The notes beneath the pieces were generated by a model. It was not told where the DNA came from and did not search any database. It was given only the letters and a program-made list of their open reading frames with translations. Shown in pieces: positions 16,671-63,962 of a stretch of DNA of 64,000 nucleotides. Within the stretch, counting starts at the first letter, position 1. Every line of letters begins with the position of its first letter. The translations under genes were made by a program, and so were the position numbers. Origin of the DNA: Picochlorum sp. SENEW3 (Eukaryota); NCBI GenBank assembly GCA_034226945.1, contig CP120460.1:682001-746000 (forward strand). The letters are read 5' to 3'.

Positions 16671-17483
16671 TTACGCGCAAATCTCATACGTGAGACCGAT
16701 ACTCCCCTCAACTTTCTGTGTGCCTGTAGATACAACAGTGGTCTTTTCAGGAGACAGCCCGACATCGTTAGCAGCCATCGCCGCGTAAGGCTGATATGGT
16801 GGATAAAACGAGTCCGTTATATACGTAACAGCTCCAAGAGCAGCCCCGATAGACTTTGCTAGAGTTGCCGCTGTAGTTGCTGCGTGATTGACGGCTTCCT
16901 CCCTCAAGGCATTTTGAATTTCTCTCAACAGCCCATCAGACACATAAAATTGTGTGTCAGTAATCTCCACATTATTTCCCCCAGCACCAATCACAGCATC
17001 AATAACATCAGACACATTTCCACTCGCACTTCGAACCATCATTGATTGTGAATACGTATAATTTGACACGGCCGTATTCCTTGTATCCTCATAATTGGGC
17101 TGGACAAGAAATGCAGTCGTCGTAATATCAGTATCATTCAGAAATGCGAGGTCCATCAATGCCCCCATGATACCATTAGAAACCGTATCACCTTCACTAC
17201 TTGCTCCCGCAAGTGTATCCTCCGTCGCAAACACCCTGAATGTCACAACACCCGTATCAGGCTCGGCAAGCCTCTGAGCAGTACCGGTCACGGAAAACTG
17301 CCCAGTCACATTTGTCCCTTCCGGACACAATCTGCCCTGAACATTCGGAATATAGTTCTGTGCAGACACAGTATGTACTTGGAGAATGAAAATGCTCACA
17401 AAACCAAGGAGGAGAACTCGGAACCGCGTTGTAACACGTGGCACTTGGCAGTTCCATGTCCTGGTGGTACCATTGCTGCTCAT
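16671..17483 (-). CDS. Secreted SIMPL/DUF541 (YggE/BP26-like) protein
   Basis: Signal-like hydrophobic N-terminus; 'SVTGTAQRLAEPD', 'DITT...VQPNY', 'VIDAVIGAGGN', 'REEAVNHA...A..LAKSIG..LG.V' match the SIMPL pattern. Confidence 0.75.
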   Translation of the reverse strand: MSSNGTTRTWNCQVPRVTTRFRVLLLGFVSIFILQVHTVSAQNYIPNVQGRLCPEGTNVTGQFSVTGTAQRLAEPDTGVVTFRVFATEDTLAGASSEGDTVSNGIMGALMDLAFLNDTDITTTAFLVQPNYEDTRNTAVSNYTYSQSMMVRSASGNVSDVIDAVIGAGGNNVEITDTQFYVSDGLLREIQNALREEAVNHAATTAATLAKSIGAALGAVTYITDSFYPPYQPYAAMAANDVGLSPEKTTVVSTGTQKVEGSIGLTYEICA

Positions 17484-17713
17484 CAGTATCTTCTTAATCA
17501 CTCGAAGAACCTATATATTTATTTCGGAATTCAATAGGGTTTTTTATCGATATACATTGTAGTTAGTTGAAGTACTACATGCACTACTATTTTCCAGCTG
17601 TCATCATTTCAAGATCTTGGATTGACCAACATCTGCCATGATTTTCAATAGCTGCAAACACATGCATGGTGTAATTGTACCTCCACGGCAATATCATGAA
17701 GGATGACTTGAAT

Positions 17714-19096: not shown

Positions 19097-19542
19097 AGGA
19101 AGAACTGATATCGAAATTGATGCATTATTTATTTCGATTCAATGTGGAAAGGTAATGCGTGGTCACAATCGATACACGTGCAATGCTTCTTTATTGCAAA
19201 GATCCTCATGATGGTGGGTGGCGCCAACTGGCCTTCAGGCAAGCTGAAGGCATCACCCCATTCTGATGTGACACCAGGATTCTACATTCGATACAGAGAT
19301 GAATACCTGACAACGTACGTGTCTATCTAAAGAATTCAGATGTTCCATAATATCTCTCGTTGGTGGTGACAAGTACTAGTAGCATTGGTAGTAGTTGGAC
19401 AACACTAGTAGTACTACTGGCCTCGCCTAGGCGACAGGCCTGTCGTCATCTCCTCAACATCGGAATGAGATGGGTCCGTCTAGAACTCGAGCAGGCAAAA
19501 CCCAATCTTCCACCCCATTAAATTTTATAAACATTACTTGCT

Positions 19543-20976
19543 ATGAAATTTCTGAGGATAATCTGGTGCGATGTAACCGGTATTCGGCGTTGCAGGGTCG
19601 TACCGCTTGACGACAGGATTACAAAGTTGGGCGAGGGCGATATAAACATTCCCATCGCCGACTATATACATCATATCAGTCGATTAGCATTAGTGTGCTA
19701 TTTTTTACCCTGCTATGCGGATGAAGTGGTGACAAAGAAAGCGCAGCTCATGGGAGATACACGTCTTCAGCCCTGCGTTTCGGAAATATCTGGAATGTCC
19801 AAGGTCGTGTGGCTTCCGTACTCTCCAGATGCAATAGTTGTATCTGAGATGCTCTCGCTGTCAAGGTTTCCCGGCTCTGATACAGCAGAGCATGTGCAGC
19901 ATGATTGGTCTCCAAGACGGTATTTACAGCTTGCTCTAGAGCGGTTGAAGAGGGAATGTTTGCTGGATATCTTGGTTGGGTTTGAGACTGAATTCATCTT
20001 GCTACAGAATATTGTCGATGAACATGGATACGACACGTATGTTCCTATTGAAACGAGTGCATATTGTCAGACGACAGGTTTTGATACAGTTGCTGATGTG
20101 ATTCGAGACATGTGTACTGTGCTGCAAGCCCATGGTCACCAGCAGGTATTGCATTGCCATGGAGAATCTGCGAATGGCCAATACGAGATCGTGACGGGAT
20201 ATGGAGATGCCTTGACTCAAGCTGATGATTTCATCTTGAGGAAGGAGCTTATTCAGCATGTGGCGCGTACTCATGGGCTGGTTGTGAGTTTTTTACCAAA
20301 GCTTTTTCAGGATCAGGCTGGAACAGCGTCCCATGTTCACATCAGTCTAGTGCCGACATCGGATACCGATAGAGTAGAGTTAGATGATCATGGGCTTTCG
20401 ATACATTTGTCTCGGTTTATTGCGGGTTTGATTGATAATATGCAAGCCCTGGTGCTGCTGACTGCTGGATCGCCAAATTCTTCCAAAAGACTGCTTGATG
20501 GGGCTTGGGCAGGGAGCTGGTCCTGCTGGGGGTTTGATAATAAAGAGGCGCCTTTGAGGGTGATTGATCGGAACCATGTAGAGTATAAAGCGTTTGATGG
20601 GACAGTGAATCCGTACTTGGCAATGACTGCAATTCTGTGTGCGGGTTTAGATGGAATCTCCAGGGGCCAATGTGCGCCTGGTCCAGTTACTGGTGACCCG
20701 AGTGTATTGGACAGTAAACCCGTGACGTGTACGCGACTTCCTCAATCATTAGATGAATCTATACTGTTTTTCTCAGAAAATAGAACGAGGATGGAAACTG
20801 ATGGGTCCGGGATGATTTCTGAATGGTACAGAGCAGTCTGCAGTGATGGTGGCATTCCCAAGAAAGCCTTGGACGAGTTTTTGCATGATTTCTGCGCGAC
20901 AAAAGAAGCAGAGGCAGAATACTTTAGCTCTAAATCTTTTGAAGAAGAAGTTGATATTCTGCGACTACGATATTAA
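19543..20976 (+). CDS. Type-I glutamine synthetase-like protein (FluG/NodGS/gamma-glutamyl ligase-like)
   Basis: RIIWCDVTGIRRCRVVP, GFETEF, HGESANGQYE, SHVHIS, WGFDNKEAPLR, EYKAFDGTVNPYL. Confidence 0.85.
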   Translation: MKFLRIIWCDVTGIRRCRVVPLDDRITKLGEGDINIPIADYIHHISRLALVCYFLPCYADEVVTKKAQLMGDTRLQPCVSEISGMSKVVWLPYSPDAIVVSEMLSLSRFPGSDTAEHVQHDWSPRRYLQLALERLKRECLLDILVGFETEFILLQNIVDEHGYDTYVPIETSAYCQTTGFDTVADVIRDMCTVLQAHGHQQVLHCHGESANGQYEIVTGYGDALTQADDFILRKELIQHVARTHGLVVSFLPKLFQDQAGTASHVHISLVPTSDTDRVELDDHGLSIHLSRFIAGLIDNMQALVLLTAGSPNSSKRLLDGAWAGSWSCWGFDNKEAPLRVIDRNHVEYKAFDGTVNPYLAMTAILCAGLDGISRGQCAPGPVTGDPSVLDSKPVTCTRLPQSLDESILFFSENRTRMETDGSGMISEWYRAVCSDGGIPKKALDEFLHDFCATKEAEAEYFSSKSFEEEVDILRLRY

Positions 20977-21171
20977 TGTAAAGTATTGTCGATGATGGTT
21001 CTGCTCGACAGCCAGTGGTGGTGTATCCAGATCCAAGAAGACCCTTGGATGACATGTACAGACAGATCTTCTTCAGAAAGCGTGCGGAATGATGCGTGAA
21101 GCCAGTAATGCATATTTGAGTTGTTCGTTTTGTATAAAAATTACTACAGTAGTTCTTTTTAGTACATCATC

Positions 21172-21957
21172 ATGCGGAATATGATGGTGGCTCTGCTTTT
21201 GTTTGCCTCTTGGTGTGCTTTTGGTCTGCCAGTATTTGCTGTAGAAAGCAGCAGTGAGTGGAGTTGGAAGTGCCAATACCCTGGGAAATGGGCCTTTTGC
21301 TCACTTGTGTGTGATCAAGGTTGTATAGAAGGACCTAATGGATTTCCAGGTATGTGTGGTCGTATCGTTATGGGTGCTTGAATTGACTCTTTGAATCGAT
21401 TCATCAATGAGCCTGCAGGGGGCTGTGGATTCTGTAAATTCTGTGATCCATCTGCCCGGCCACCACCTGAATGTGTCGTCTCGCTTGAGGAAGCATCCAG
21501 ATCATTTAATATGTCTTCTGAGATTGTCCAAGGACAACCTGGAAAGATTGTGAATGCTAGCATAGTTGTTCAGGATGTCAATTCCTGGTTTGAAAGCCGA
21601 GGTCCCAACCTGCCACCTCCTATCACAACCGCCGTCCAGTGCGCGAAATCTTGTATGGAGCATGAGGAAATGTGCAATGCGTGGGAGTTTTGCTACTCTG
21701 CACAAGGATGTGGAGAAGCAGGAGAATGCTCTGTTGTGGGACAGGCATCAAATATAACTGATTCGTGCACAACATTAGGCCCGTATGGGCTATGTACAGC
21801 GGATGGACGTTTCCCGCCCCTCACCTGCGTCCTCAAAATAGTGGATAATATTACAAACGTTGAAATCGATTCGGAAGTTGACGGATGGACTTCTGGTCTC
21901 ATATCTTTCGAGAATCTAGGATTTGAACCACAGACAAACCTGACATGTCAGTTTTGA
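21172..21957 (+). CDS. Secreted Cys-rich protein with a PAN/apple-like domain
   Basis: Exons 21172-21349 and 21419-21957 (69-nt GTATGT...TGCAG intron, in frame); signal peptide; CAKSC...CNAWEFC...GC motif; no TM. Confidence 0.7.
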
Positions 21958-53718: not shown

Positions 53719-54720
53719 TCAACTACTCCTACTAGACGACTGTTTGCCTGGCGATGTGGAACACGTCCTGCTATCAGCTGCACAGCCAGGATAGCCCTGG
53801 ACTGTATCATTCACAGCAGCCTCAGTCAATGGGAGACACAGGCATGCCTCTCCCCCATCAGCTGACCTTACTTTCCTCGGAACCGTCTTGTCCTTTTCAT
53901 CACAATACACCTGTGATCCAGAGTCTTTATGCCATCGAAACCCGCATCGCCCTCCAGACGCACTGCTCTGGGTCGTATTCTTCTCAACTTCCCTCTTGTA
54001 GTCTGCTGCGTGTGATTCCACAATGCCAAGCAATGGCAATGGATTGCCCTTGGCATCGTAGAATCGCCCAATCACACGCCCAACATGGACATATTTGGCA
54101 CTATTGATATAAAAATTTCTCCAGTCGACGAGCTCTGCCATCCGTTCCGGTGATAGATCGCGAATATCATCATGTAGGTCGACATCAAACTTGCCAGTGG
54201 TGTAGGCCCTTGATGCATCCCTTCCAGCAAAGAAATGATACGACCCTCCCCGCCCTGCATATGTACATATATATGAGTCAGTTGATATATACGGAGGAGT
54301 CGGCATTGCGAATACAGAAAACATACCGTAATGCCTCTTGCCTTGGGTCACATCAAAGACAGACCCCAAAATGGCCAAGTACAGTGGACCACCACGCCGC
54401 TGCTTCCCATCATACATGCCCAATTCTTCGGTGGTAAACACCTTCATACTACTATTACGTGACGTCGGCTGCACCGAATGCTGTCGCATTCGAAGGGTTC
54501 CAACCACACCAAACAGAACCAAGAGGCCCATCAGAGGCAGGAGGAGGAGGACTCGAAACGTACTCGTATGGTCTGCTGTTGCTGTTGCTCTTCCTCCTGG
54601 GACTGATGCATTCTTCTTTTCTTGTTCTTTTTCATATGTATGCCCGTGTGGAGCGGGTTTGATGCCATTGTCCTTGATAACGCGTTTTCGAATGCCTTGT
54701 GGCATTCCATCCTCACCCAT
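53719..54720 (-). CDS. Cytochrome b5-like heme/steroid-binding protein (neuferricin/MAPR family)
   Basis: TM anchor; FTTEELGMYDG...LYLAILGSVFDVTQGKRHYG|RGGSYHFFAGRDASRAY; in-frame 72-nt intron 54326-54255. Confidence 0.88.
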   Translation of the reverse strand: MGEDGMPQGIRKRVIKDNGIKPAPHGHTYEKEQEKKNASVPGGRATATADHTSTFRVLLLLPLMGLLVLFGVVGTLRMRQHSVQPTSRNSSMKVFTTEELGMYDGKQRRGGPLYLAILGSVFDVTQGKRHYGMFSVFAMPTPPYISTDSYICTYAGRGGSYHFFAGRDASRAYTTGKFDVDLHDDIRDLSPERMAELVDWRNFYINSAKYVHVGRVIGRFYDAKGNPLPLLGIVESHAADYKREVEKNTTQSSASGGRCGFRWHKDSGSQVYCDEKDKTVPRKVRSADGGEACLCLPLTEAAVNDTVQGYPGCAADSRTCSTSPGKQSSSRSS

Positions 54721-54849
54721 GATAATGTATACGACACTTCATCAAACAATCACGATATCGACTGGCAATATTGATTACTTACTTATATATATATACATAT
54801 AGATGTTTATTATTATTAAATACTGTTTCGATCGATCGATGGATATATC

Positions 54850-55977
54850 TCAGTCACGACGCAGCTCTTCTTCTTCCGCTTCTTCTTGTCTAATTGGATG
54901 GCCCTCGTCAACATCTTCTCTGTCTTCTCCTTCTCCTTCCTCACGACGCAATGCTTTGCCATGCGTCCGAGTCATGAGTGCGAATGTCAGCATGATGGCC
55001 ACCATGGCAATGATCAACACCCCCGCAATTGTTGGCAAGACTATCCACAACACCGTGTTTGATGAACCACCATTGCTCTTCTCAACCGGATTCTTGGCCT
55101 CGAGACCTTGCTCTGTCAGCACATACACGTTTGACTGAGGGTCTTGTATCAGTTCATCTTCTTCGATCAACCCACCACCCGTCGGTCCTCGCTTCAGAAT
55201 ACCCAGATTCTGAGAGGAATCACCAGTGATGGATGGCAAAAAGACAAAGCCTTTGCATCTGGGGTCGGCACTGCATATATCAGAGATTTCTGATGCTGAT
55301 CCATAAATTTCACATCGAGTTTTCGTCGGACTATACCCGCAGGTGAAATCATAGGTCGCTGATATGTTCATGCTCGGAAAGGTGCGGTACCCTGATATAG
55401 AAGGCATGAACATTCTGCTCATCTGCCCAGATGAAAAATCGCTGTCATTTTCAAAGAATTCCGAGGAAGAAGAAGATGCAGGTCTCTTTGATAATAATAT
55501 ACACGCTTTATATGGAACTCGAGACACGTCACCTGGTGTCTCGGCGAATGCCGTGACGTTGAGCCTGTCAGGGACACGGCATCCGCTGGGATGCATGCAA
55601 AAGTTCCAGGCATTGCACCCATCCCAACGAGCACAGGTTGCACAGCACCCTCGCTTCGACCCCGCAATGGTATATAACCTTGGTATTATTGTCGTTCCGC
55701 TCAATACTGTCGAGTTATCGATGATACTGCACCCAGTGACGAGAATACCACCCTGGATGACCTGCACAGACGAGGACTCGCCAGAGGAAGCAGTGCACGC
55801 AGACACAGAAGGGTCGCAGAGCAGTTCCTCCTGTGCTAGTCGCCGTCTCTGTCGTTTTACTCTATCACTAAACATCATGCTAAATCTATTGTGGAGAGAA
55901 GAAGACCCAGTGCTTCGACATTCTACTGACAAGGTCAAAGACAAACACAAGAGCAACCAAATACAACGTGCTCTCAT
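54850..55977 (-). CDS. Single-pass receptor-like protein with tandem Cys-rich PAN/apple-like ectodomains and a short acidic tail
   Basis: Signal peptide; CCATCARWDGCNAWNFC...GC; second domain GYRTFP...C...CSADPRCKGF; TM VLWIVLPTIAGVLIIAMVAIML; ~40-aa tail. Confidence 0.78.
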   Translation of the reverse strand: MRARCIWLLLCLSLTLSVECRSTGSSSLHNRFSMMFSDRVKRQRRRLAQEELLCDPSVSACTASSGESSSVQVIQGGILVTGCSIIDNSTVLSGTTIIPRLYTIAGSKRGCCATCARWDGCNAWNFCMHPSGCRVPDRLNVTAFAETPGDVSRVPYKACILLSKRPASSSSSEFFENDSDFSSGQMSRMFMPSISGYRTFPSMNISATYDFTCGYSPTKTRCEIYGSASEISDICSADPRCKGFVFLPSITGDSSQNLGILKRGPTGGGLIEEDELIQDPQSNVYVLTEQGLEAKNPVEKSNGGSSNTVLWIVLPTIAGVLIIAMVAIMLTFALMTRTHGKALRREEGEGEDREDVDEGHPIRQEEAEEEELRRD

Positions 55978-56476
55978 CCTATTATTATTCTCAGCTGTTA
56001 TTGATCCAATATGTCACGAATGGTTATATGTATTCTCAGGTGTGATACGAACCCATGATGGAGACTGTGTCTCAATGGATTAACGAAGACACACATTGAG
56101 ACAAACGCGTTCTTCGATACTCACATGCGTGCTCTCCTACTATCATGTCGATCAGAAACTATATTTAATTTAATTTCTTCATGGAAAATAGAATTCTATT
56201 GTTGTATACTCATGAGATGAGTCTCTCAAGGAGAGACTCCCATCTCTAGAGATCTCGCCATGGCATGCCTTAATTTGTAATAATAAAATGGCGTCATCGA
56301 CCTGGCGTTTGTCTCATCATGCTCAAGGGAATATTCGACCCAGTGGAGATTACTAAAGGTAGAGAAGGTAATCATGTTATGAACTCGGAGGATTTTATTC
56401 GCTGGGGTGTTTCTATATACGTATTTGGATATATTTGTTTGTAATGTGATTTGGATTTTGTCAAATTCTCTCAAGT

Positions 56477-56597
56477 ATGCGAGTACAACAGCTGAGTATC
56501 TTTTGGGTTGCGCTGTGGGGTGCTGTCGCGGCAGCAGCGACAACACCGGTGCGTTATTGTATGCGGATATGAACATGAATTATTTACCATGGATCAT

Positions 56598-56637
<40 letters not shown>

Positions 56638-57974
56638 GGTGGGTACATTGTTATAGTGACCTGTACATGCGTGTGTGGCTGCAGGAGTTTGCCATTGCCA
56701 AGGACTATGTGATCACCTTTTGGCCTCTCTGGCTCAGTGTGAACCAGTGGGAGAAATTTCCCACCAACAGTTTATTTGGACCAGATGAAATTACGCCAGA
56801 ATTTCACTCTGTGGTGGCCATCAATGTGGACACATTGTATGGTGCTACGATTGTTGATCTGAGCAAGGGGCCTTTGGTGCTCACGGTGCCGGACACGGAT
56901 GTGGGGTATTCTGTGATTCTTGCGGATTCATTTGGGACGTATTTGGATACTGGTGATCTGAAGAATCACAAGGCCGGTGAGTATGGGGGAGGTGGAACGT
57001 ATCTCTTGAAGGGGCCTATGGCTGGGGAGGCCCCCGGGGGAGGAGGGTATGATGTGGTTCATGTGCCATACAATCACACCATGCTCATCTTTAGGGCGGA
57101 TGTATCCCTTCCTGATGGTACCAGTATTCTTGAAAAGACGCATGCTTTTCGGAGGGGACTTCAGCTTGCGAATTTGACTGAATATGAAAACAATGCCGAG
57201 GCAGGTGGTCTCCAAATAGTGTCAGTCGAGTTGTTTTCAACGCCGTACAAGTCTATCGCGGATAACATGGTGCAGTTGGCGCCAATTATGTATTTGAAGC
57301 AGCTTCAAGAGTCAGTCGAGTCGAAATTTATTCCACCTTTGACCCCCATGGAGCAATCTGTGTCTGACCAGTTTGATGCTGCGTTTGATGCACGGACCAA
57401 TGATGGAGAGTTCCAAAAGGGTGCTATTGCTGGATATAACGCACTGTTGGAAAATTATTTCACAAATACGGATGGAAATGGGTGGATTCATTTCACTGAT
57501 ATGGGGGATTGGGGGAATGATACCCTGAACAGAGCCTCAACCACAGAATTTATTCAATGGGGTAATACAATGGAGACTGCTGCGTATTATCACACATTTA
57601 TTGATGGTGATGGTAACGCATTGACTGGGGGAAATGACGCTGTATATATGTTGAAATTTACCCCGGAGGATATTCCTCCAGTTGGACGGTTTTGGAGCGT
57701 CACTGCATACACTCCATACACTGTCGAGTTGATTCCCAATGATGCCAACAAATACCACGTTGCAAGTTACAGCCAAGGTCTTGAGACGGATTCAGATGGT
57801 GGAGTGACTATATATATATCCAAAACAAGGCCTGTAGGTGTGCCAAAAGCTAATTGGCTTCCTGTTTCGGGTTCAAAATTCAATATTATTCTCAGGGTCT
57901 ATGGGATTGTGGAAGGCAGCAACGTAGCAGAGAATACCTATGTCCCACCGGCTATAGTATTGATGTCCAAGTGA
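56477..57974 (+). CDS. Secreted DUF1254/DUF1214-domain protein
   Basis: Exon 1 56477-56548 (MRVQQLSIFWVALWGAVAAAATTP, signal-like); intron 56549-56684; then NVDTLYG...DLSKGPLVLTVPD (DUF1254) and DGDGNALTG...PPVGRFWSVTAY...NWLP...LRVY (DUF1214). Confidence 0.85.
56598..56636. repeat. (ATG)13 microsatellite, intronic
   Basis: 13 perfect ATG units inside the 56549-56684 intron. Confidence 0.95.
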
Positions 57975-58171
57975 CATGAGAACAGATGATGGGGCTAGGC
58001 TTTTGCATTTTTTTTTGCTTAATTGCTTGTCGTTTCTTCTTCACCATATATCAATCTTTAGAATCATTCACTACAAATGTCTTACAATACCGTCTCTATA
58101 ATTGTATTTGACGAAAAATATTCTCTTCGAATAGAAGCGCTCTATAAATAGTAATCATATGTATAGGGTCG

Positions 58172-60613
58172 TCATCTGGTAACATCGCAGACTCGCCCAA
58201 GGGCGTCGAGAAGATCTTTTGCGGTTGGCCTATCGTCAGGATTTTCAGCAGTACATGCCTGATACAAATCCACAATCTCCTGAGGACAGTCGCCTGGTGC
58301 TTGCAATGGACGCATGTCACCACGAGCAGGTGCCTCCCCGGTGCAAATCTCCCACAGTACCACGCCAAATGAGAAAATGTCAGCCTTTTCTGTGCATCTC
58401 TTTCCAGCCAAAACTTCAGGGGCACTCCAGGCAAAGGTTCCTAGGCCACTGATGACTGATAAATAACTCTTATTCAAAACTCTTGCCATTCCAATGTCGG
58501 CAAGTTTTGCTGTCCCGGCTCTAGACAGCAGAATATTTGCAGACTTCAAATCAAAGTGAACAACTCTTCGAGAGTGAAGGTAATGGAGCCCTCTTGCTAC
58601 ATCAACCAAACATTGGGCTCCTCTGCTGTACCAGGAGAATATTCGCTCTCCTTGAGGGTCTTTTGCTGACAGAGCTCTCCACAGGTCCCCAAGCTCCATG
58701 AGCTCTGTGACGAGCAGTGCTGTTCCATGAGGTCCATCCAAACAGGCTCCCAAAAACTGCACTACATTCTTATGGCGAAGGGCTTTCAGAAGGGACGCTT
58801 CTCTAATGAAAGAGTCTTTATGTCGCTCTTCTTCTACATGGTGGATAATTTTAATTGCTACTGGGTGTACACCATGATACAGTCCCTTGTATACTGTTCC
58901 AAAACCACCAGTACCCAATTGCCACCATGTCCCATCAGGTCGCCGGCAGACCTCAACTTCCTCCGGTAAAATAGACCAGTCATCAACTAACCCGGCATCG
59001 GCCAGTCCAGATGATTCATGGGCAATCACTGATGGTATTTTTGTGCTTTCTCTATGCTGTGTTCGTGAGCTAGCACTGGCAGAGCTTCTGCGGCTCTCTT
59101 CTACTGCTGCTTCCAACTCTGCTGCTGCCTTGCTTTCATCATCCTCCAAAAGACTTCCCAATTGCAAGTAGTCTACAGCTGGCCTCTGCTTGTACATTTG
59201 AGAAAATGCATCAATTAAATCACGCGCAGAAGAGCCAGCTGGCATTGAATCAGGTGGAGAAGTTGATCTATCTGGAGTTTGGTTAAACGAAGGCATTTCG
59301 TTTGGTCTCGGAACTTCTGATACAACAATTGTTTGTTGACGCGGCAGTCTCCCTATGACATCTACGGATGTTGGAGAGCCGCTGTCTTCTGCACTCTCTT
59401 CTAAAAAGTCTCCAGATGAGTCTTCTTCTGAAGAGTTTCTAATGTGCCCCACTTTATTCTTATCATTATTCTCATCATCATTTGATGATCGATTCGCACT
59501 TGGGAAAGATCGAGTCATCTTCTGATACCGTTTAATGTAGTACACCATTCCTATCAACGCAGCTATGAGAACGACACCAACGACACTAGCAACAACTGCA
59601 ATGACAACAGTCGATGTCCCATCACTCGAGGTATCAGTCTCGTCAGTGGCCACAATTCCAGCTTGTTCTGCTACATTCACAGATTCCGGTAGCAACCCAT
59701 CCTCAACATAAATTGCAGCATTTGGATTCAATTCAACCTCTGTCACAAATGACTCTGCAACGTCCCCAGTCTTCAAAATACCCACGCTTCCTTGAAATGG
59801 AGTCGGTTGACTGTTTGAGGGATCTAATCCTTTCCTATAAAAATTGAACGCCAAACATTCCTCAACCTCTGAACACACAGCGGCAATCAGATTTGCCGAA
59901 CCCTTGATCATACATCCATACTGATCTGTGCTATTATACACCAAAGAATCCGTCAAATTTACGATACTGGGAGACTCAGAAAAGCCAGACAGATCGCATT
60001 TAAAGTCAAATGCGCTTCCGAGTTCATTACCAGGAAACACCTCATATCCATCCACATCAGGCACACTCACATTCAGTGGCGCTCCAGCAATGAATGGAAT
60101 ATTCTCTCCCTTCGACTTCACATCTGATAGATCAAATACATACTGTGTGAATCCTTCTAAATCTAATAACTGACAACCTAAATACGGAAATGACGTATTG
60201 CTCAACTTCTTTCCCGTTGTGTTTGCAAATGAGCATCCAACTTCCACTGGACACCACTGCCATGCATTGCACTTGTCATTCTCCAGGCAACTCGCACAAC
60301 ATTCTCTGGACGACGCCTTCAAATTCGTCACTGGATCTACTATTTGTCTGTTTCCATTCGCAAATGGGAAGTAATACGTATTAAATGATGGCATGCACAG
60401 CTGAACTGTTGAATCCACTTCTACAGGCCGATTCTCCTCGGGAGATGTACCAATATCCTCGACTTGCTGCAACAACTTCCGCGACAAGATTCTCCCATCC
60501 CCACATAGCGATACTGGTACAGCATGTACCTCATCTGATGCACTCACAGCATGCCACGGGACCCCAATACTCGCAACCACAAGCACTATCAACAACACTT
60601 CAAGTCCCACCAT
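58172..60613 (-). CDS. Receptor-like TKL kinase with PAN/apple-like ectodomain; non-RD
   Basis: Signal peptide; ECCASCLENDKCNAWQWC...GC; TM VVIAVVASVVGVVLIAALIGMVYYI; kinase LGTGGFGTV, VAIK, HFDLKSANILL, DIG, GTFAWSAPE. Confidence 0.9.
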   Translation of the reverse strand: MVGLEVLLIVLVVASIGVPWHAVSASDEVHAVPVSLCGDGRILSRKLLQQVEDIGTSPEENRPVEVDSTVQLCMPSFNTYYFPFANGNRQIVDPVTNLKASSRECCASCLENDKCNAWQWCPVEVGCSFANTTGKKLSNTSFPYLGCQLLDLEGFTQYVFDLSDVKSKGENIPFIAGAPLNVSVPDVDGYEVFPGNELGSAFDFKCDLSGFSESPSIVNLTDSLVYNSTDQYGCMIKGSANLIAAVCSEVEECLAFNFYRKGLDPSNSQPTPFQGSVGILKTGDVAESFVTEVELNPNAAIYVEDGLLPESVNVAEQAGIVATDETDTSSDGTSTVVIAVVASVVGVVLIAALIGMVYYIKRYQKMTRSFPSANRSSNDDENNDKNKVGHIRNSSEEDSSGDFLEESAEDSGSPTSVDVIGRLPRQQTIVVSEVPRPNEMPSFNQTPDRSTSPPDSMPAGSSARDLIDAFSQMYKQRPAVDYLQLGSLLEDDESKAAAELEAAVEESRRSSASASSRTQHRESTKIPSVIAHESSGLADAGLVDDWSILPEEVEVCRRPDGTWWQLGTGGFGTVYKGLYHGVHPVAIKIIHHVEEERHKDSFIREASLLKALRHKNVVQFLGACLDGPHGTALLVTELMELGDLWRALSAKDPQGERIFSWYSRGAQCLVDVARGLHYLHSRRVVHFDLKSANILLSRAGTAKLADIGMARVLNKSYLSVISGLGTFAWSAPEVLAGKRCTEKADIFSFGVVLWEICTGEAPARGDMRPLQAPGDCPQEIVDLYQACTAENPDDRPTAKDLLDALGRVCDVTR

Positions 60614-61177
60614 GACAACTGCGATTCGTATACCTCTTCAATCACATTATCAACACCATATATACCATTTGATTCATTCTGCACCAACAAAATGCCAACA
60701 GTCAACGGATATCCGCACGTTCCTTTCCAACCCCCCGGAATCATGGAGGGGCCCGAACACCAACGTAGAAAATCGAGCAGCATGGCTCGCCGCCAATGGT
60801 AATCATGATTTTAGTCATATATATAATCTTTTTTCAACCATGCGTGAGGAATATGAGACCAACGAGTTCAACGCGATGTTGTCAAACAGAACAAGAGCCA
60901 CGCACCTGTGCAATGCTTGGTCACGCGAATCCCTTACAGTGTTACATTACTCATCTCAAAAAGTAAGGTATTCGACTATAGGACTCCAACCCTTCTCCAA
61001 AATACCATGGTCTCATGTCAAACGAACGCTACAATGGATCGGTTTGTCGACTTCGGTCGAGTGATCTGTTTGATGGGAATACCAATACCAGGCACTTGCA
61101 GTGTCGACGATGGAGCTCGTGTCGACATGGTACAGAAGCCTTTCTTGATCGGTTCTGCATGATGTATATTCATAGAA

Positions 61178-62752
61178 ATGAAGAATGTGGGTAAAACCGT
61201 AGGAAGAATGCGGTTGAAAAGAACCATGCAATCGCCATGCTATACCACGACTCTTGCGAGGCAAAGGCCAGTGCCCTTGACGCAAAAATATGCGACTCTG
61301 AATGGGTTCCGTGGGCGTTTTGCGATGGCTATTGCATCTAGAGATGAAAATTCTACTGAAGAGGTGCCATCGAGGCCGCTGTTTGCGGATTTTATCGCCG
61401 CAAAATCCGTACAAGGTGGGGATGCAGATGCAGATGACAAGGTGGATGAATTAATTGAGAGGACATCAGGGGTGCTTCGTGATGCGGCGGAGGCGCTGCA
61501 AGATATACGGTCAAAGTATGTGGATGAGACTCCCAGTGTGAAGAGAGGAGATGGAGGAGCGGTTGGAGTTGTGAAATCGAGGCAGAGGCCTGCATTTTTG
61601 AACAGGGTGTCACAAGGTGACACAAAAGATGGTTTCTCAAGCTCTTCTCTGGCGCCACCATCGTCTGTAGGAACGTCACTTGATGGTTGGTTTGGAGGAA
61701 AGGTAGATGCCGGCCCTTTACTTGCCCCGAAAAAGGAAAAGCAGGGGCCGAGGATGATGTTTAAGGAGAAGGACTCGGAGACACCGCAGGAGATGTGGTT
61801 TGCTGGGTCACCGTTGGCACCTGAAGCGCCGGAGGAATCGATCAAAGGTTCTCAGAGCTTATTTCCAGAGAGTTTAGCTCTGAAATTCCAGTCTGAGGAT
61901 GAAGAAATCTATGAGGAGGAGTTGGGGCAGGAGGAGGCAATGACTGTTGGGTTGACAGAAATGATGTCTACAACGGAGAGTGGGGAAGAGTTTGGCGAGA
62001 ACGGGTACTGGTACAGATGGACAGAAGTTTCCGGTCAAAATAAGGATGGAACCGTTGCGTGGACAGAAAGGTGGTGGGAAGTGAGTGATTGGTCTGGCAT
62101 GAAGGAATTAGGGGCTGAAAAGTATGGAATTAATGACTCGGGGGATGCATGGCGGGAGACCTGGACGGAAAAAATAAGCATCGATAAAAAGACGAAACAG
62201 CCAATGGTACTAAGAAATGCACATAAATGGGCGAGAGCTGCGAATCAGCAGGAATGGGAAGAAAAATGGTCAGAAGTGTACTGGAGTGGTGGAAAGACAG
62301 AGAAATGGGCTGACAAGTGGGGACGGGATGGAGGGGATGTCTGGCATGAAACATGGGGAGAAGACTATGATGGATTTGGTGGTTGTGTAAAATGGACCGA
62401 TCGATGGGCTGAACGCCCCGATGGGTATGGTGGACTGACCAAGTGGGGAGATAAGTGGAGGGAAGAGTTCAAACATGGTGTGGGGGAGAAGAATGGAGAG
62501 ACGTGGCAAGAGATCCCAGGACAAGACAAGTATCAGAGGTGGTGGGGTGAAAATCATTTTGGAGACGGTCATGTCCAAAAACATGGAAACAGCAGTACAG
62601 GGGAACATTGGGACGTGACAGAGCACATGGATACATATTATAATCCCATTCCTCACTTTGGATATGATTTGGCATTGGCACACTCCCCGCAGCTTCGGGA
62701 GGTGCCTGTTCTGCCAAGAGACGATATTTTAGATTTAGAATTTGAATCTTGA
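61178..62752 (+). CDS. ESV1/LESV-family Trp-rich starch-granule protein
   Basis: Transit-like N-terminus; W/E/D-rich repeats (KELGAEK, WGDKW, GETW, WGENHFG, GEHWD, PHFG). Confidence 0.88.
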   Translation: MKNVGKTVGRMRLKRTMQSPCYTTTLARQRPVPLTQKYATLNGFRGRFAMAIASRDENSTEEVPSRPLFADFIAAKSVQGGDADADDKVDELIERTSGVLRDAAEALQDIRSKYVDETPSVKRGDGGAVGVVKSRQRPAFLNRVSQGDTKDGFSSSSLAPPSSVGTSLDGWFGGKVDAGPLLAPKKEKQGPRMMFKEKDSETPQEMWFAGSPLAPEAPEESIKGSQSLFPESLALKFQSEDEEIYEEELGQEEAMTVGLTEMMSTTESGEEFGENGYWYRWTEVSGQNKDGTVAWTERWWEVSDWSGMKELGAEKYGINDSGDAWRETWTEKISIDKKTKQPMVLRNAHKWARAANQQEWEEKWSEVYWSGGKTEKWADKWGRDGGDVWHETWGEDYDGFGGCVKWTDRWAERPDGYGGLTKWGDKWREEFKHGVGEKNGETWQEIPGQDKYQRWWGENHFGDGHVQKHGNSSTGEHWDVTEHMDTYYNPIPHFGYDLALAHSPQLREVPVLPRDDILDLEFES

Positions 62753-62877
62753 GTCACTTCCACATTGAATACGTATTGAAATGTAAACTGTGCTCAACTG
62801 TGGGCATTGAATGTGTGTGTTTATAAAACAACATGCGTGAAACAAAGTATGCTGCTTGATGAATGAATAATTGATGA

Positions 62878-63962
62878 TCAATACTGAGAAAACAATGATA
62901 CACTGATGGAAAAGCAAAACGCAATGCAGGTAGCCCAATATATGCATGCTCTCACTGAATGGGATGATGCAGTATATTCCTCTACCCAAGTGGTCGAAAA
63001 AGGATCAATACGGGTCTCCAGTGGCATGTTCCCCTGCAATCCACTCAAGAGACGCCCATACGCAGCACCTTCATTCGGTTGGATATAGGTAAAACCATTG
63101 CAATTTGTCATACTTCTACAGACTTTAGCCACCGTCTCCAATTCTTCATAAATATGACAGTACTCTTGGTTGTTGGCTGAATAATCCAGCCCTCCAAATG
63201 ATGCAGGAATATCACATGGTGCCAACTCCTTGTCTTGAAGAATTTGTGCTGGATAATAATCAAATCCATCCAACATCGCAGTTCGCTCAAAGTTATTCAC
63301 GGCAGAAGAGACAATATTAGGAACATCAGATGAGAGATACTCCAGAGCATCTTTTCCTTGCACTGTTGATGGCAGTGCATTCCATAGAATGCATCCCTGG
63401 AAGGCCAGCGTCGTCACATTGATACGATCCGCCAAAACGTCAGGAATCTCACAATCGTTCAATCCATTGCAAAATATCCAAAGATTGCATCCACTCGTCT
63501 CAATACACTCTTGGCAGCACCCAACAAGGTTGCTGGACCCTCTTGCCACATTCAGTGACAAGAGCGTACCCTCTCTTGGAATGACCCACCTGTCGAACTG
63601 CAATATGCAACGTCCGCTATCTTCTATAGCACCTGAAAGTACACACATTATATAGGTTTGTTTGTCACTTGACATCCTAAAAACAATGCATCCTCATGCA
63701 GGGAATCTTCGCTCCCGTCGGTTTGTCTCGTGCGACTCACTATCCAGACGCGGACGCCACCGGTGAAGCCTCGTGCGGTATCGGAAGGGATGCGTTTGCG
63801 TTTATTCGGCATAAATATCATTCCGCATGCATTGCATATTATAGTAAACGTACTTGTATTCACAATTTCCTCCGCGTGAGCGACTGTAATGGCCCAAAGC
63901 ACCGCGACGACGGCACACGGTAGAGGGTGTAGCATAGAGTCAGTATGCTTTGACGAAGCCAT
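62878..63962 (-). CDS. PAN/apple-like ectoprotein with a C-terminal hydrophobic (putative GPI) tail
   Basis: Exons 63962-63854 (signal peptide) and 63632-62878 (221-nt GTACGT...TTTCAG intron, frame-consistent); GCCQECIETSGCNLWIFC; ends ASSHSVRACIYWATCIAFCFSISVSLFSQY. Confidence 0.72.

Follow-up and report, generated by a model that had tools for sequence, protein, structure and literature searches.

Do receptor-like genes that lie close together in a unicellular green alga form a plant-like set of receptor and co-receptors, or are they duplicates that have since gone separate ways? The question is raised by three genes, here called A, B and C, in a 64,000-nucleotide stretch of the Picochlorum sp. 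SENEW3 genome (contig CP120460.1, positions 682,001 to 746,000 of the forward strand; the whole stretch is hereafter called the window), which is gene-dense green-algal sequence of 45% GC whose closest named proteins belong to Picochlorum. All three genes lie on the minus strand within 9.1 kb and encode a common two-domain Cys-rich ectodomain. A preliminary description made from the sequence of the window read them as an independently assembled system of receptor kinase, receptor-like protein and glycosylphosphatidylinositol (GPI)-anchored protein. Our analysis of the sequences suggests that A and C are likely kinase-less paralogs that arose near B by local duplication, and it seems reasonably probable that the three proteins now have independent or diverged roles. 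The kinase type of B is known, the cluster with kinase-less paralogs is new, and a signalling module made of the three is put forward as a hypothesis. The genes and their parts are the following.

54850..55977, minus strand: gene A, 375 aa, with a signal peptide, an RRLAQ pro-motif, two PAN domains (approximately aa 83-291), a transmembrane segment (TM, approximately aa 310-335), an acidic 40-aa tail and no kinase
55105..55731, minus strand: tandem PAN ectodomain of A, from the sequence and the ectodomain hidden Markov model (HMM)
58172..60613, minus strand: gene B, 813 aa, with a signal peptide, an RKLLQ pro-motif, two PAN domains (aa 72-307), a TM (approximately aa 336-360), a juxtamembrane region of approximately 200 aa and a non-RD TKL kinase (aa 565-804)
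59693..60400, minus strand: tandem PAN ectodomain of B, from an AlphaFold2 (AF2) model, fold matches and a PAN_4 score of 29.1 bits on the ectodomain alone
58202..58921, minus strand: kinase domain of B (Pfam PF07714, 183.9 bits)
60679..60905, minus strand: GT..AG intron of 227 nt in the 5′ untranslated region of B, with its joints in RNA runs X17 and X19 from two studies
62878..63962, minus strand: gene C, 287 aa, with exons 63854-63962 and 62878-63632, a signal peptide, two PAN domains (aa 44-256), a candidate omega site A258-S-S, a moderately hydrophobic 21-aa end and no cytosolic tail

The motifs quoted for the three genes in the preliminary description are all in place, and so are the three different C-termini that it distinguished, a TM with a 40-aa tail in A, a TM with a kinase in B and a hydrophobic end in C. 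B and C are transcribed and spliced. The intron of C (63633-63853, GT..AG) is bridged by an RNA-type contig with one substitution, and the 287-aa spliced product is identical in sequence to the NCBI protein P0053. Contigs of run X17 cover B, C and two intervening genes described below (LESV and DUF1254), and X19 holds a 159-bp piece of A; such contigs show neither absence nor level and were not used as evidence, and RNA run X9 is probably DNA.

The tandem PAN ectodomain

The ectodomains of the three proteins are homologous, with 28% identity between A and B in BLASTP (E 3e-19), 23% between A and C (1e-12) and 21% between B and C (5e-10), and the Cys residues are invariant in each of the 13 rows aligned for the family. 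When the Cys were kept fixed and the other residues permuted, none of 1000 shuffles reached the observed score for any of the three pairs. With the Cys masked the observed score was reached by none of 1000 shuffles for A-B, by a marginal 10 for A-C and by 259 for B-C, and the likeness of B and C consequently rests mainly on their Cys residues. Homology beyond the Cys spacing is thus supported with the Cys kept fixed; with the Cys masked it holds for A-B and marginally for A-C, not for B-C. No similarity is left among the three genes at the DNA level, which rules out a recent duplication or gene conversion among them. Judged by their sequences, A, B and C carry distant paralogs and not one common ectodomain; of the shared ectodomain of the preliminary description, the homology stands and the single ectodomain does not. 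The three are not neighbours of each other, with a DUF1254/DUF1214 gene between A and B and an LESV gene between B and C.

The PAN/apple fold that had been proposed for both domains is borne out by Pfam and by models of B and C. Against a curated PAN_4 cut-off of 27 bits, A scores 38.3, C 30.5-34.8 and the B ectodomain alone 29.1, the full-length B staying below it with 25.2. The AF2 model of B has a predicted local distance difference test (pLDDT) score of 79 and a predicted template modelling (pTM) score of 0.71; among the models of C the best reaches a pLDDT of 84 and the remaining four 49-67. Domain 1 of the B model matches a plasma kallikrein apple domain with a Z-score of 9.7 and a root mean square deviation (rmsd) of 2.6 over 83 aligned residues, domain 2 matches 4a5t_S (Z 9.3, rmsd 2.0, 78 aligned), and both halves of the C model match PAN chains with Z 7.7-8.9, so that each domain in the models of B and C has the fold with Z 7.7-9.7, rmsd 2.0-2.6 and 77-83 aligned residues. 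The top four Foldseek rows are factor XI and kallikrein apples, and an Atlas search with A gave leads that all score <0.9, every one of them PAN/MANEC-like. The fold class covers both lectins and peptide binders and therefore identifies no ligand.

In A, B and many relatives an RxLxQ motif precedes the first PAN domain. The motif resembles that of subtilases and is presumably a cleavage site for a pro-segment in A and B. B would thus be secreted, with its pro-segment removed at the motif, and would display two disulfide-bonded PAN domains on the cell surface, where these might bind a glycan or protein of the cell wall.

Gene B and the tandem-PAN kinases of Chlorellales

B has the architecture of a receptor-like kinase (RLK), with a signal peptide, an ectodomain, one TM and a cytosolic kinase according to hydropathy and Pfam, and its catalytic motifs GTGGFG, VAIK, HFDLKSAN, DIG and SAPE read as intact. 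In plants, a non-RD kinase is regarded as a sign of immune function. The feature was rejected as an immune marker for B, being uninformative here: each of the 25 PAN kinases examined is non-RD, and so are most other algal kinases of the radiation. B would signal through its non-RD kinase upon ligand-driven dimerisation.

The preliminary description saw an assembly independent of plants, and its two parts fare differently. In the PDB the B kinase has its best single-domain match in CTR1 with 142.8 bits; IRAK4 reaches 116 and BRI1 110. The list is headed by an EGFR construct with two copies, solely because two 82-bit stretches are added up. These are PDB scores and not a phylogenetic test, and by them the kinase appears nearer to the Raf-like CTR1 than to IRAK4 or BRI1, which points away from RLK/Pelle and is in line with an assembly independent of that plant group. 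The receptor itself is no local invention. In a fast tree of 94 kinase-domain rows, which included no identified reference RLK/Pelle rows, B falls in a clade of 19 rows with a support of 100, 18 of whose rows have a PAN ectodomain, the remaining one being a fragment. A protein search with the B ectodomain found 24 family members among 1497 candidates, all of them kinases, the lowest being that of Nannochloris desiccata with 33% identity. A local ectodomain HMM was then applied to 150 rows from a search of representative sequences and detected the double PAN domain in 24 of 145 further proteins, nearly all kinases; the profile of that representative search had taken in kinase columns (758 positions), so that the counts favour kinases and kinase-less relatives outside Picochlorum are poorly sampled. 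The named double-PAN kinases come from Micractinium, Chlorella (C. sorokiniana), Parachlorella and Auxenochlorella.

Part of this family has been catalogued before. The N. desiccata ortholog of B, A0A8T2WEU7, is row 338 of Table S1 in a survey of chlorophyte RLKs and passed DeepTMHMM there, and A0A087SE35 of Auxenochlorella (P0086) and C. vulgaris relatives including A0A9D4TNZ8 have PAN_1 on both domains among the 60 of 69 PAN rows covered from its Table S2 (PMC12757656; this and all other publications are cited for their accessible parts). The accessible parts of two works on the kinase background do not treat the PAN-PAN proteins of this family (PMC10463195, PMC4143559). On sequence grounds B represents, in Picochlorum, an inherited and already catalogued Chlorellales family of tandem-PAN receptor kinases.

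Within the family, four Micractinium and Chlorella kinases (P0106, P0099, P0101 and P0109) have extra PAN copies, and P0106 contains the double domain twice. In B, aa ~460-495 (~59130-59230, minus strand) form a conserved island in an otherwise low-complexity juxtamembrane region, which is kept in Nannochloris and in more distant PAN kinases and is a candidate regulatory helix.

Kinase-less genes, linkage and history

Gene A ends after its 40-aa tail and the next gene follows 112 bp further, and this layout is the same in P0035, in P0155 and in two distant metagenomic loci, L001 and L003. With an ectodomain, a TM, a short tail and no kinase, A has the layout of a receptor-like protein (RLP). 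Among A orthologs the ectodomain, stalk and TM are conserved but the tail is not, which suggests that A works from outside; it would act at the surface as a binder with no signalling of its own, either by itself or by tuning B. The latter role would make A an accessory co-receptor resembling the Brassica SLG, which shares the ligand of B or engages in mutual PAN binding with it and so raises or damps the B signal, with C as an optional part. We consider such a partnership rather unlikely, although several observations agree with it: A and B have the same fold and strand, their stalks are similar in length (20-28 residues), the stalk and TM of A are conserved, transcript-derived members for both come from one MMETSP-labelled source, and in Brassica SLG enhances the response of SRK (PMC11170026).

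C has an N-terminal signal peptide in its spliced exon 1 (hydrophobic aa 10-28). Its tail is moderately hydrophobic, with a best Kyte-Doolittle 19-mer of 1.65, values <1.6 in three of the seven C sequences and a hydropathy of 1.0-1.9 over the last 18 residues. A candidate omega site A-S-S with 26-29 aa to the end is found in six of the seven, and from sequence the chances that C is GPI-anchored appear about even. C would be a membrane-tethered, possibly GPI-anchored and fast-changing binding protein. If it is GPI-anchored, the RLK, RLP and GPI-type layouts known from plants (definitions in PMC12757656) would all stand within five genes. This fits the proposed three-part module, in which B is the receptor kinase, A a co-receptor and C, with its GPI anchor, a further co-receptor or a decoy, the whole having come together independently of the plant RLK/Pelle group. 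The affinity of the kinase to CTR1 fits such a module, as does the fast change of C described below, which might be expected of a decoy exposed to viruses or grazers. However, B and C show no significant likeness beyond the Cys once these are masked, the stalk of C has only ~4 residues, and GPI anchoring does not occur in all Trebouxiophyceae, the pathway being present in other chlorophytes sequenced by 2012 and lost in Coccomyxa C-169 (PMC3446292). A literature search found nothing on GPI anchoring in Picochlorum, and a word-based protein search, which distant paralogs escape, gave no further kinase-less family member (nine matches, all already known). The three-part module appears improbable to us, and equally so its stronger form, a convergent RLK/RLP/GPI sensing unit for which a single tandem-PAN gene would have been duplicated and combined with a non-RD kinase of the Raf-like type, and in which C is a decoy or co-receptor that tracks a changing ligand such as a virus or predator protein.

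The linkage of the genes bears on all of these readings. By locus tags, C, B and A are set apart from each other by one gene each in P. renovo and in two BPE23 assemblies, all >90% identical to the window. In a metagenome scan 5 of 132 pattern matches were confirmed, and two loci, L001 and L003, have sufficient flank; L002 has none, and in L004 and L005 the match is to a single PAN domain, which excluded these two from the synteny count. In L001, where B is 62% identical, the order LESV, B, A, cytochrome b5-like gene, Ca-ATPase gene and PHD gene equals that of the window minus the DUF1254 gene, with 1.2 kb between B and A. In L003 (62% GC, B 53-57% identical) A follows 190 bp after B and is followed by the same three unrelated genes. 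The tandem order of B and A is thus kept in both testable distant loci, an observation that also agrees with a partnership of the two. However, unrelated neighbours are kept as well, the cytochrome b5-like, Ca-ATPase and PHD genes in both loci and LESV in addition in L001 (four and three genes, respectively), and therefore the linkage speaks for a tandem origin and not for a coupling; that a DUF1254 gene is tolerated between A and B further argues against a partnership. The synteny expected of a module accordingly stands as far as the B-A order is concerned, with a linkage no stronger than that of unrelated neighbours and with C outside the conserved block: in L001, the one distant locus able to show it, C is not at the cluster position, and no C ortholog was found in 10 kb, a GH32 gene ending 70 bp from LESV and leaving no space for C.

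A coincidence, in which A, B and C belong to a large dispersed PAN family and lie near each other by chance, is very improbable. With 7000 genes assumed, the expected number of chance clusters (three members in five genes) is 0.002 for 20 scattered copies and 0.2 for 100, so that a coincidence would need ~100 or more copies, whereas N. desiccata has a total of 16 RLKs. In the 64-kb window the tandem PAN ectodomain is confined to A, B and C, and three protein searches, which miss paralogs below ~33% identity, gave no other named Picochlorum family member. A chance arrangement would accord with that blind range of the searches, with the unrelated genes that intervene, with the 36 RLKs of C. vulgaris, 9 of which have PAN (PMC12757656), and with a fourth, weak PAN reading frame in the window. 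The latter (21163-21957, plus strand, two frames, probably one intron) would encode a secreted Cys-rich protein with a single PAN-like motif, which has a PAN_4 E-value of 0.016, below the cut-off, and 73% in hhalign.

A local duplication, as originally proposed, remains the likely origin of the cluster, given the B-A tandem in both distant loci, the number of copies that chance would need and a common clade of A, B and C that an approximately unbiased (AU) test does not reject (p 0.53). A would have split off long ago, before the lineages of the window, L001 and L003 parted, and C would have arisen later than A or under much faster change. Each of the three genes forms a supported ortholog clade of its own. 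None of the groupings is rejected by the AU tests, including A+B (0.27), C+B (0.39) and A, B and C with Nannochloris (0.43).

Several observations weigh against this origin and the diverged roles built upon it. The placement of A and C differs in all three tree runs; the LG+G4 tree groups A with C apart from every kinase (99/98, with a long-branch warning), and in the mixture-model tree the branching of the two is left unresolved. A profile of A scores a Parachlorella kinase higher than B (88.5 versus 69.1 bits), and A may consequently descend from a sister kinase and not from B. C could be absent from L001 by loss or relocation. The weak single-PAN reading frame lies 33 kb from the cluster, and the copies of the family were counted within the 64-kb window only.

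The rates of change also differ among the genes. The ectodomain of A has drifted further than that of B at the same loci, with identities of 45% and 42% in L001 and L003 versus 67% and 59% for B, which argues against a close partnership of the two. Compared with the two BPE23 copies, C has 14 and 12 differences in 217 sites and A plus B 10 in 451 (p 0.013 and 0.035 in Fisher tests that are not independent of each other). In a further, loosely paired set C is 65% identical versus 90% and 92% for the other two genes; a second C-type cluster exists at 87% (P0029), and the 65% copy could therefore be a paralog. Over these comparisons C diverges 2.5-4 times as fast as A or B. The fast change of C is either adaptive or due to relaxed constraint. 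On our preferred reading, duplication followed by independent or diverged roles, A, B and C have probably come to differ in ligand or role.

The genes that stand between and around the three are unrelated to them.

56477..57974, plus strand: DUF1254/DUF1214 gene, secreted, with an intron at 56549-56684
61178..62752, plus strand: LESV (like early starvation) family gene (Atlas PF28232 LESV, score 0.95)

The DUF1254/DUF1214 gene has been inserted between B and A in the lineage of the window only, and is not found between them in L001 or L003. What seems to be a poly-Met run in it is an ATG microsatellite within its spliced intron. Its domains are mostly bacterial; a search with short patterns, in which 0 of 32 matches could be confirmed, gave no close prokaryotic relative. 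The starch-binding LESV gene is convergent with C and adjoins B also in L001. Directly after A lies a gene for a membrane-anchored cytochrome b5-like steroid-binding protein (53719-54738, minus strand, PF00173), which L001 has retained and L003 has in inverted orientation. Further away are a glutamine synthetase catalytic-domain gene (19531-20976, plus strand) and a SIMPL/DUF541 gene (16671-17510, minus strand), both of types that are often bacterial.

Comparison with known receptor systems

In the accessible part of the chlorophyte survey, RLKs are treated as putative and none has a ligand or partner (PMC12757656). A compact locus in a small-genome industrial alga would allow a direct test of whether plant-like co-receptors or decoys exist in unicellular green algae, and whether a kinase outside RLK/Pelle serves such systems. 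If the convergent three-part reading were true, an RLK/RLP/GPI system would exist in a minimal unicellular alga with intron-poor genes amenable to knockout; if A, B and C do not interact, the locus would represent an ordinary duplication with loss of the kinase, as is common in plants.

The closest relatives are the chlorophyte PAN RLKs of Marciano et al. 2026 (PMC12757656), where the B ortholog and its PAN-PAN relatives are already catalogued. The catalogue covers kinases only; its accessible part has no mention of Picochlorum, 'tandem' or 'cluster' and gives no linked kinase-less paralogs, ligand or function. It was also the sole match in a literature search for kinase-less chlorophyte PAN proteins. 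We found no PAN receptor-like kinase of Picochlorum in print, nor linked kinase-less tandem-PAN paralogs of chlorophytes, in a search that mostly did not cover subscription journals.

The apple modules of TgMIC4, Sarcocystis SML-2, factor XI and prekallikrein and the N domain of HGF have the same fold with Z 7-10, at 8-22% identity. Their ligands are galactosides, heparin or peptides, and the fold leaves the ligand of the Picochlorum proteins unnamed.

In plant LysM perception, CERK1 partners with CEBiP. The plant LysM sets use one ectodomain family as an RLK, an RLP and a GPI-anchored protein, as do the layouts of B, A and the candidate C (PMC5485988). In contrast, the LysM fold differs from PAN, and the plant layouts mostly form separate old clades and not one local cluster (PMC5485988).

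Over their whole length the Picochlorum ectodomains show PAN domains only, both in Pfam and in the fold matches, and thus do not belong to the S-domain family. Structure 5gyy ('Plant receptor complex'), which we take to be the SRK ectodomain, is nevertheless among the fold matches with Z 6.0-6.7. Brassica SRK and SLG likewise pair a PAN-containing receptor kinase with a linked kinase-less copy, and SLG boosts the response by a mechanism left unexplained in the accessible part of the source (PMC11170026). However, the Brassica S-domain is composed of two lectin domains, an EGF and a PAN domain, as opposed to PAN-PAN, and SLG is a secreted protein with a likeness of 76-97% to its SRK (PMC11170026), as opposed to 21-28% among A, B and C and 28% between A and B, which speaks against A as an SLG-like tuner. 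The kinase of SRK is of the RLK/Pelle type, and the Picochlorum locus is without an evident ligand gene. By this analogy, A, B and C resemble SRK and SLG in layout only.

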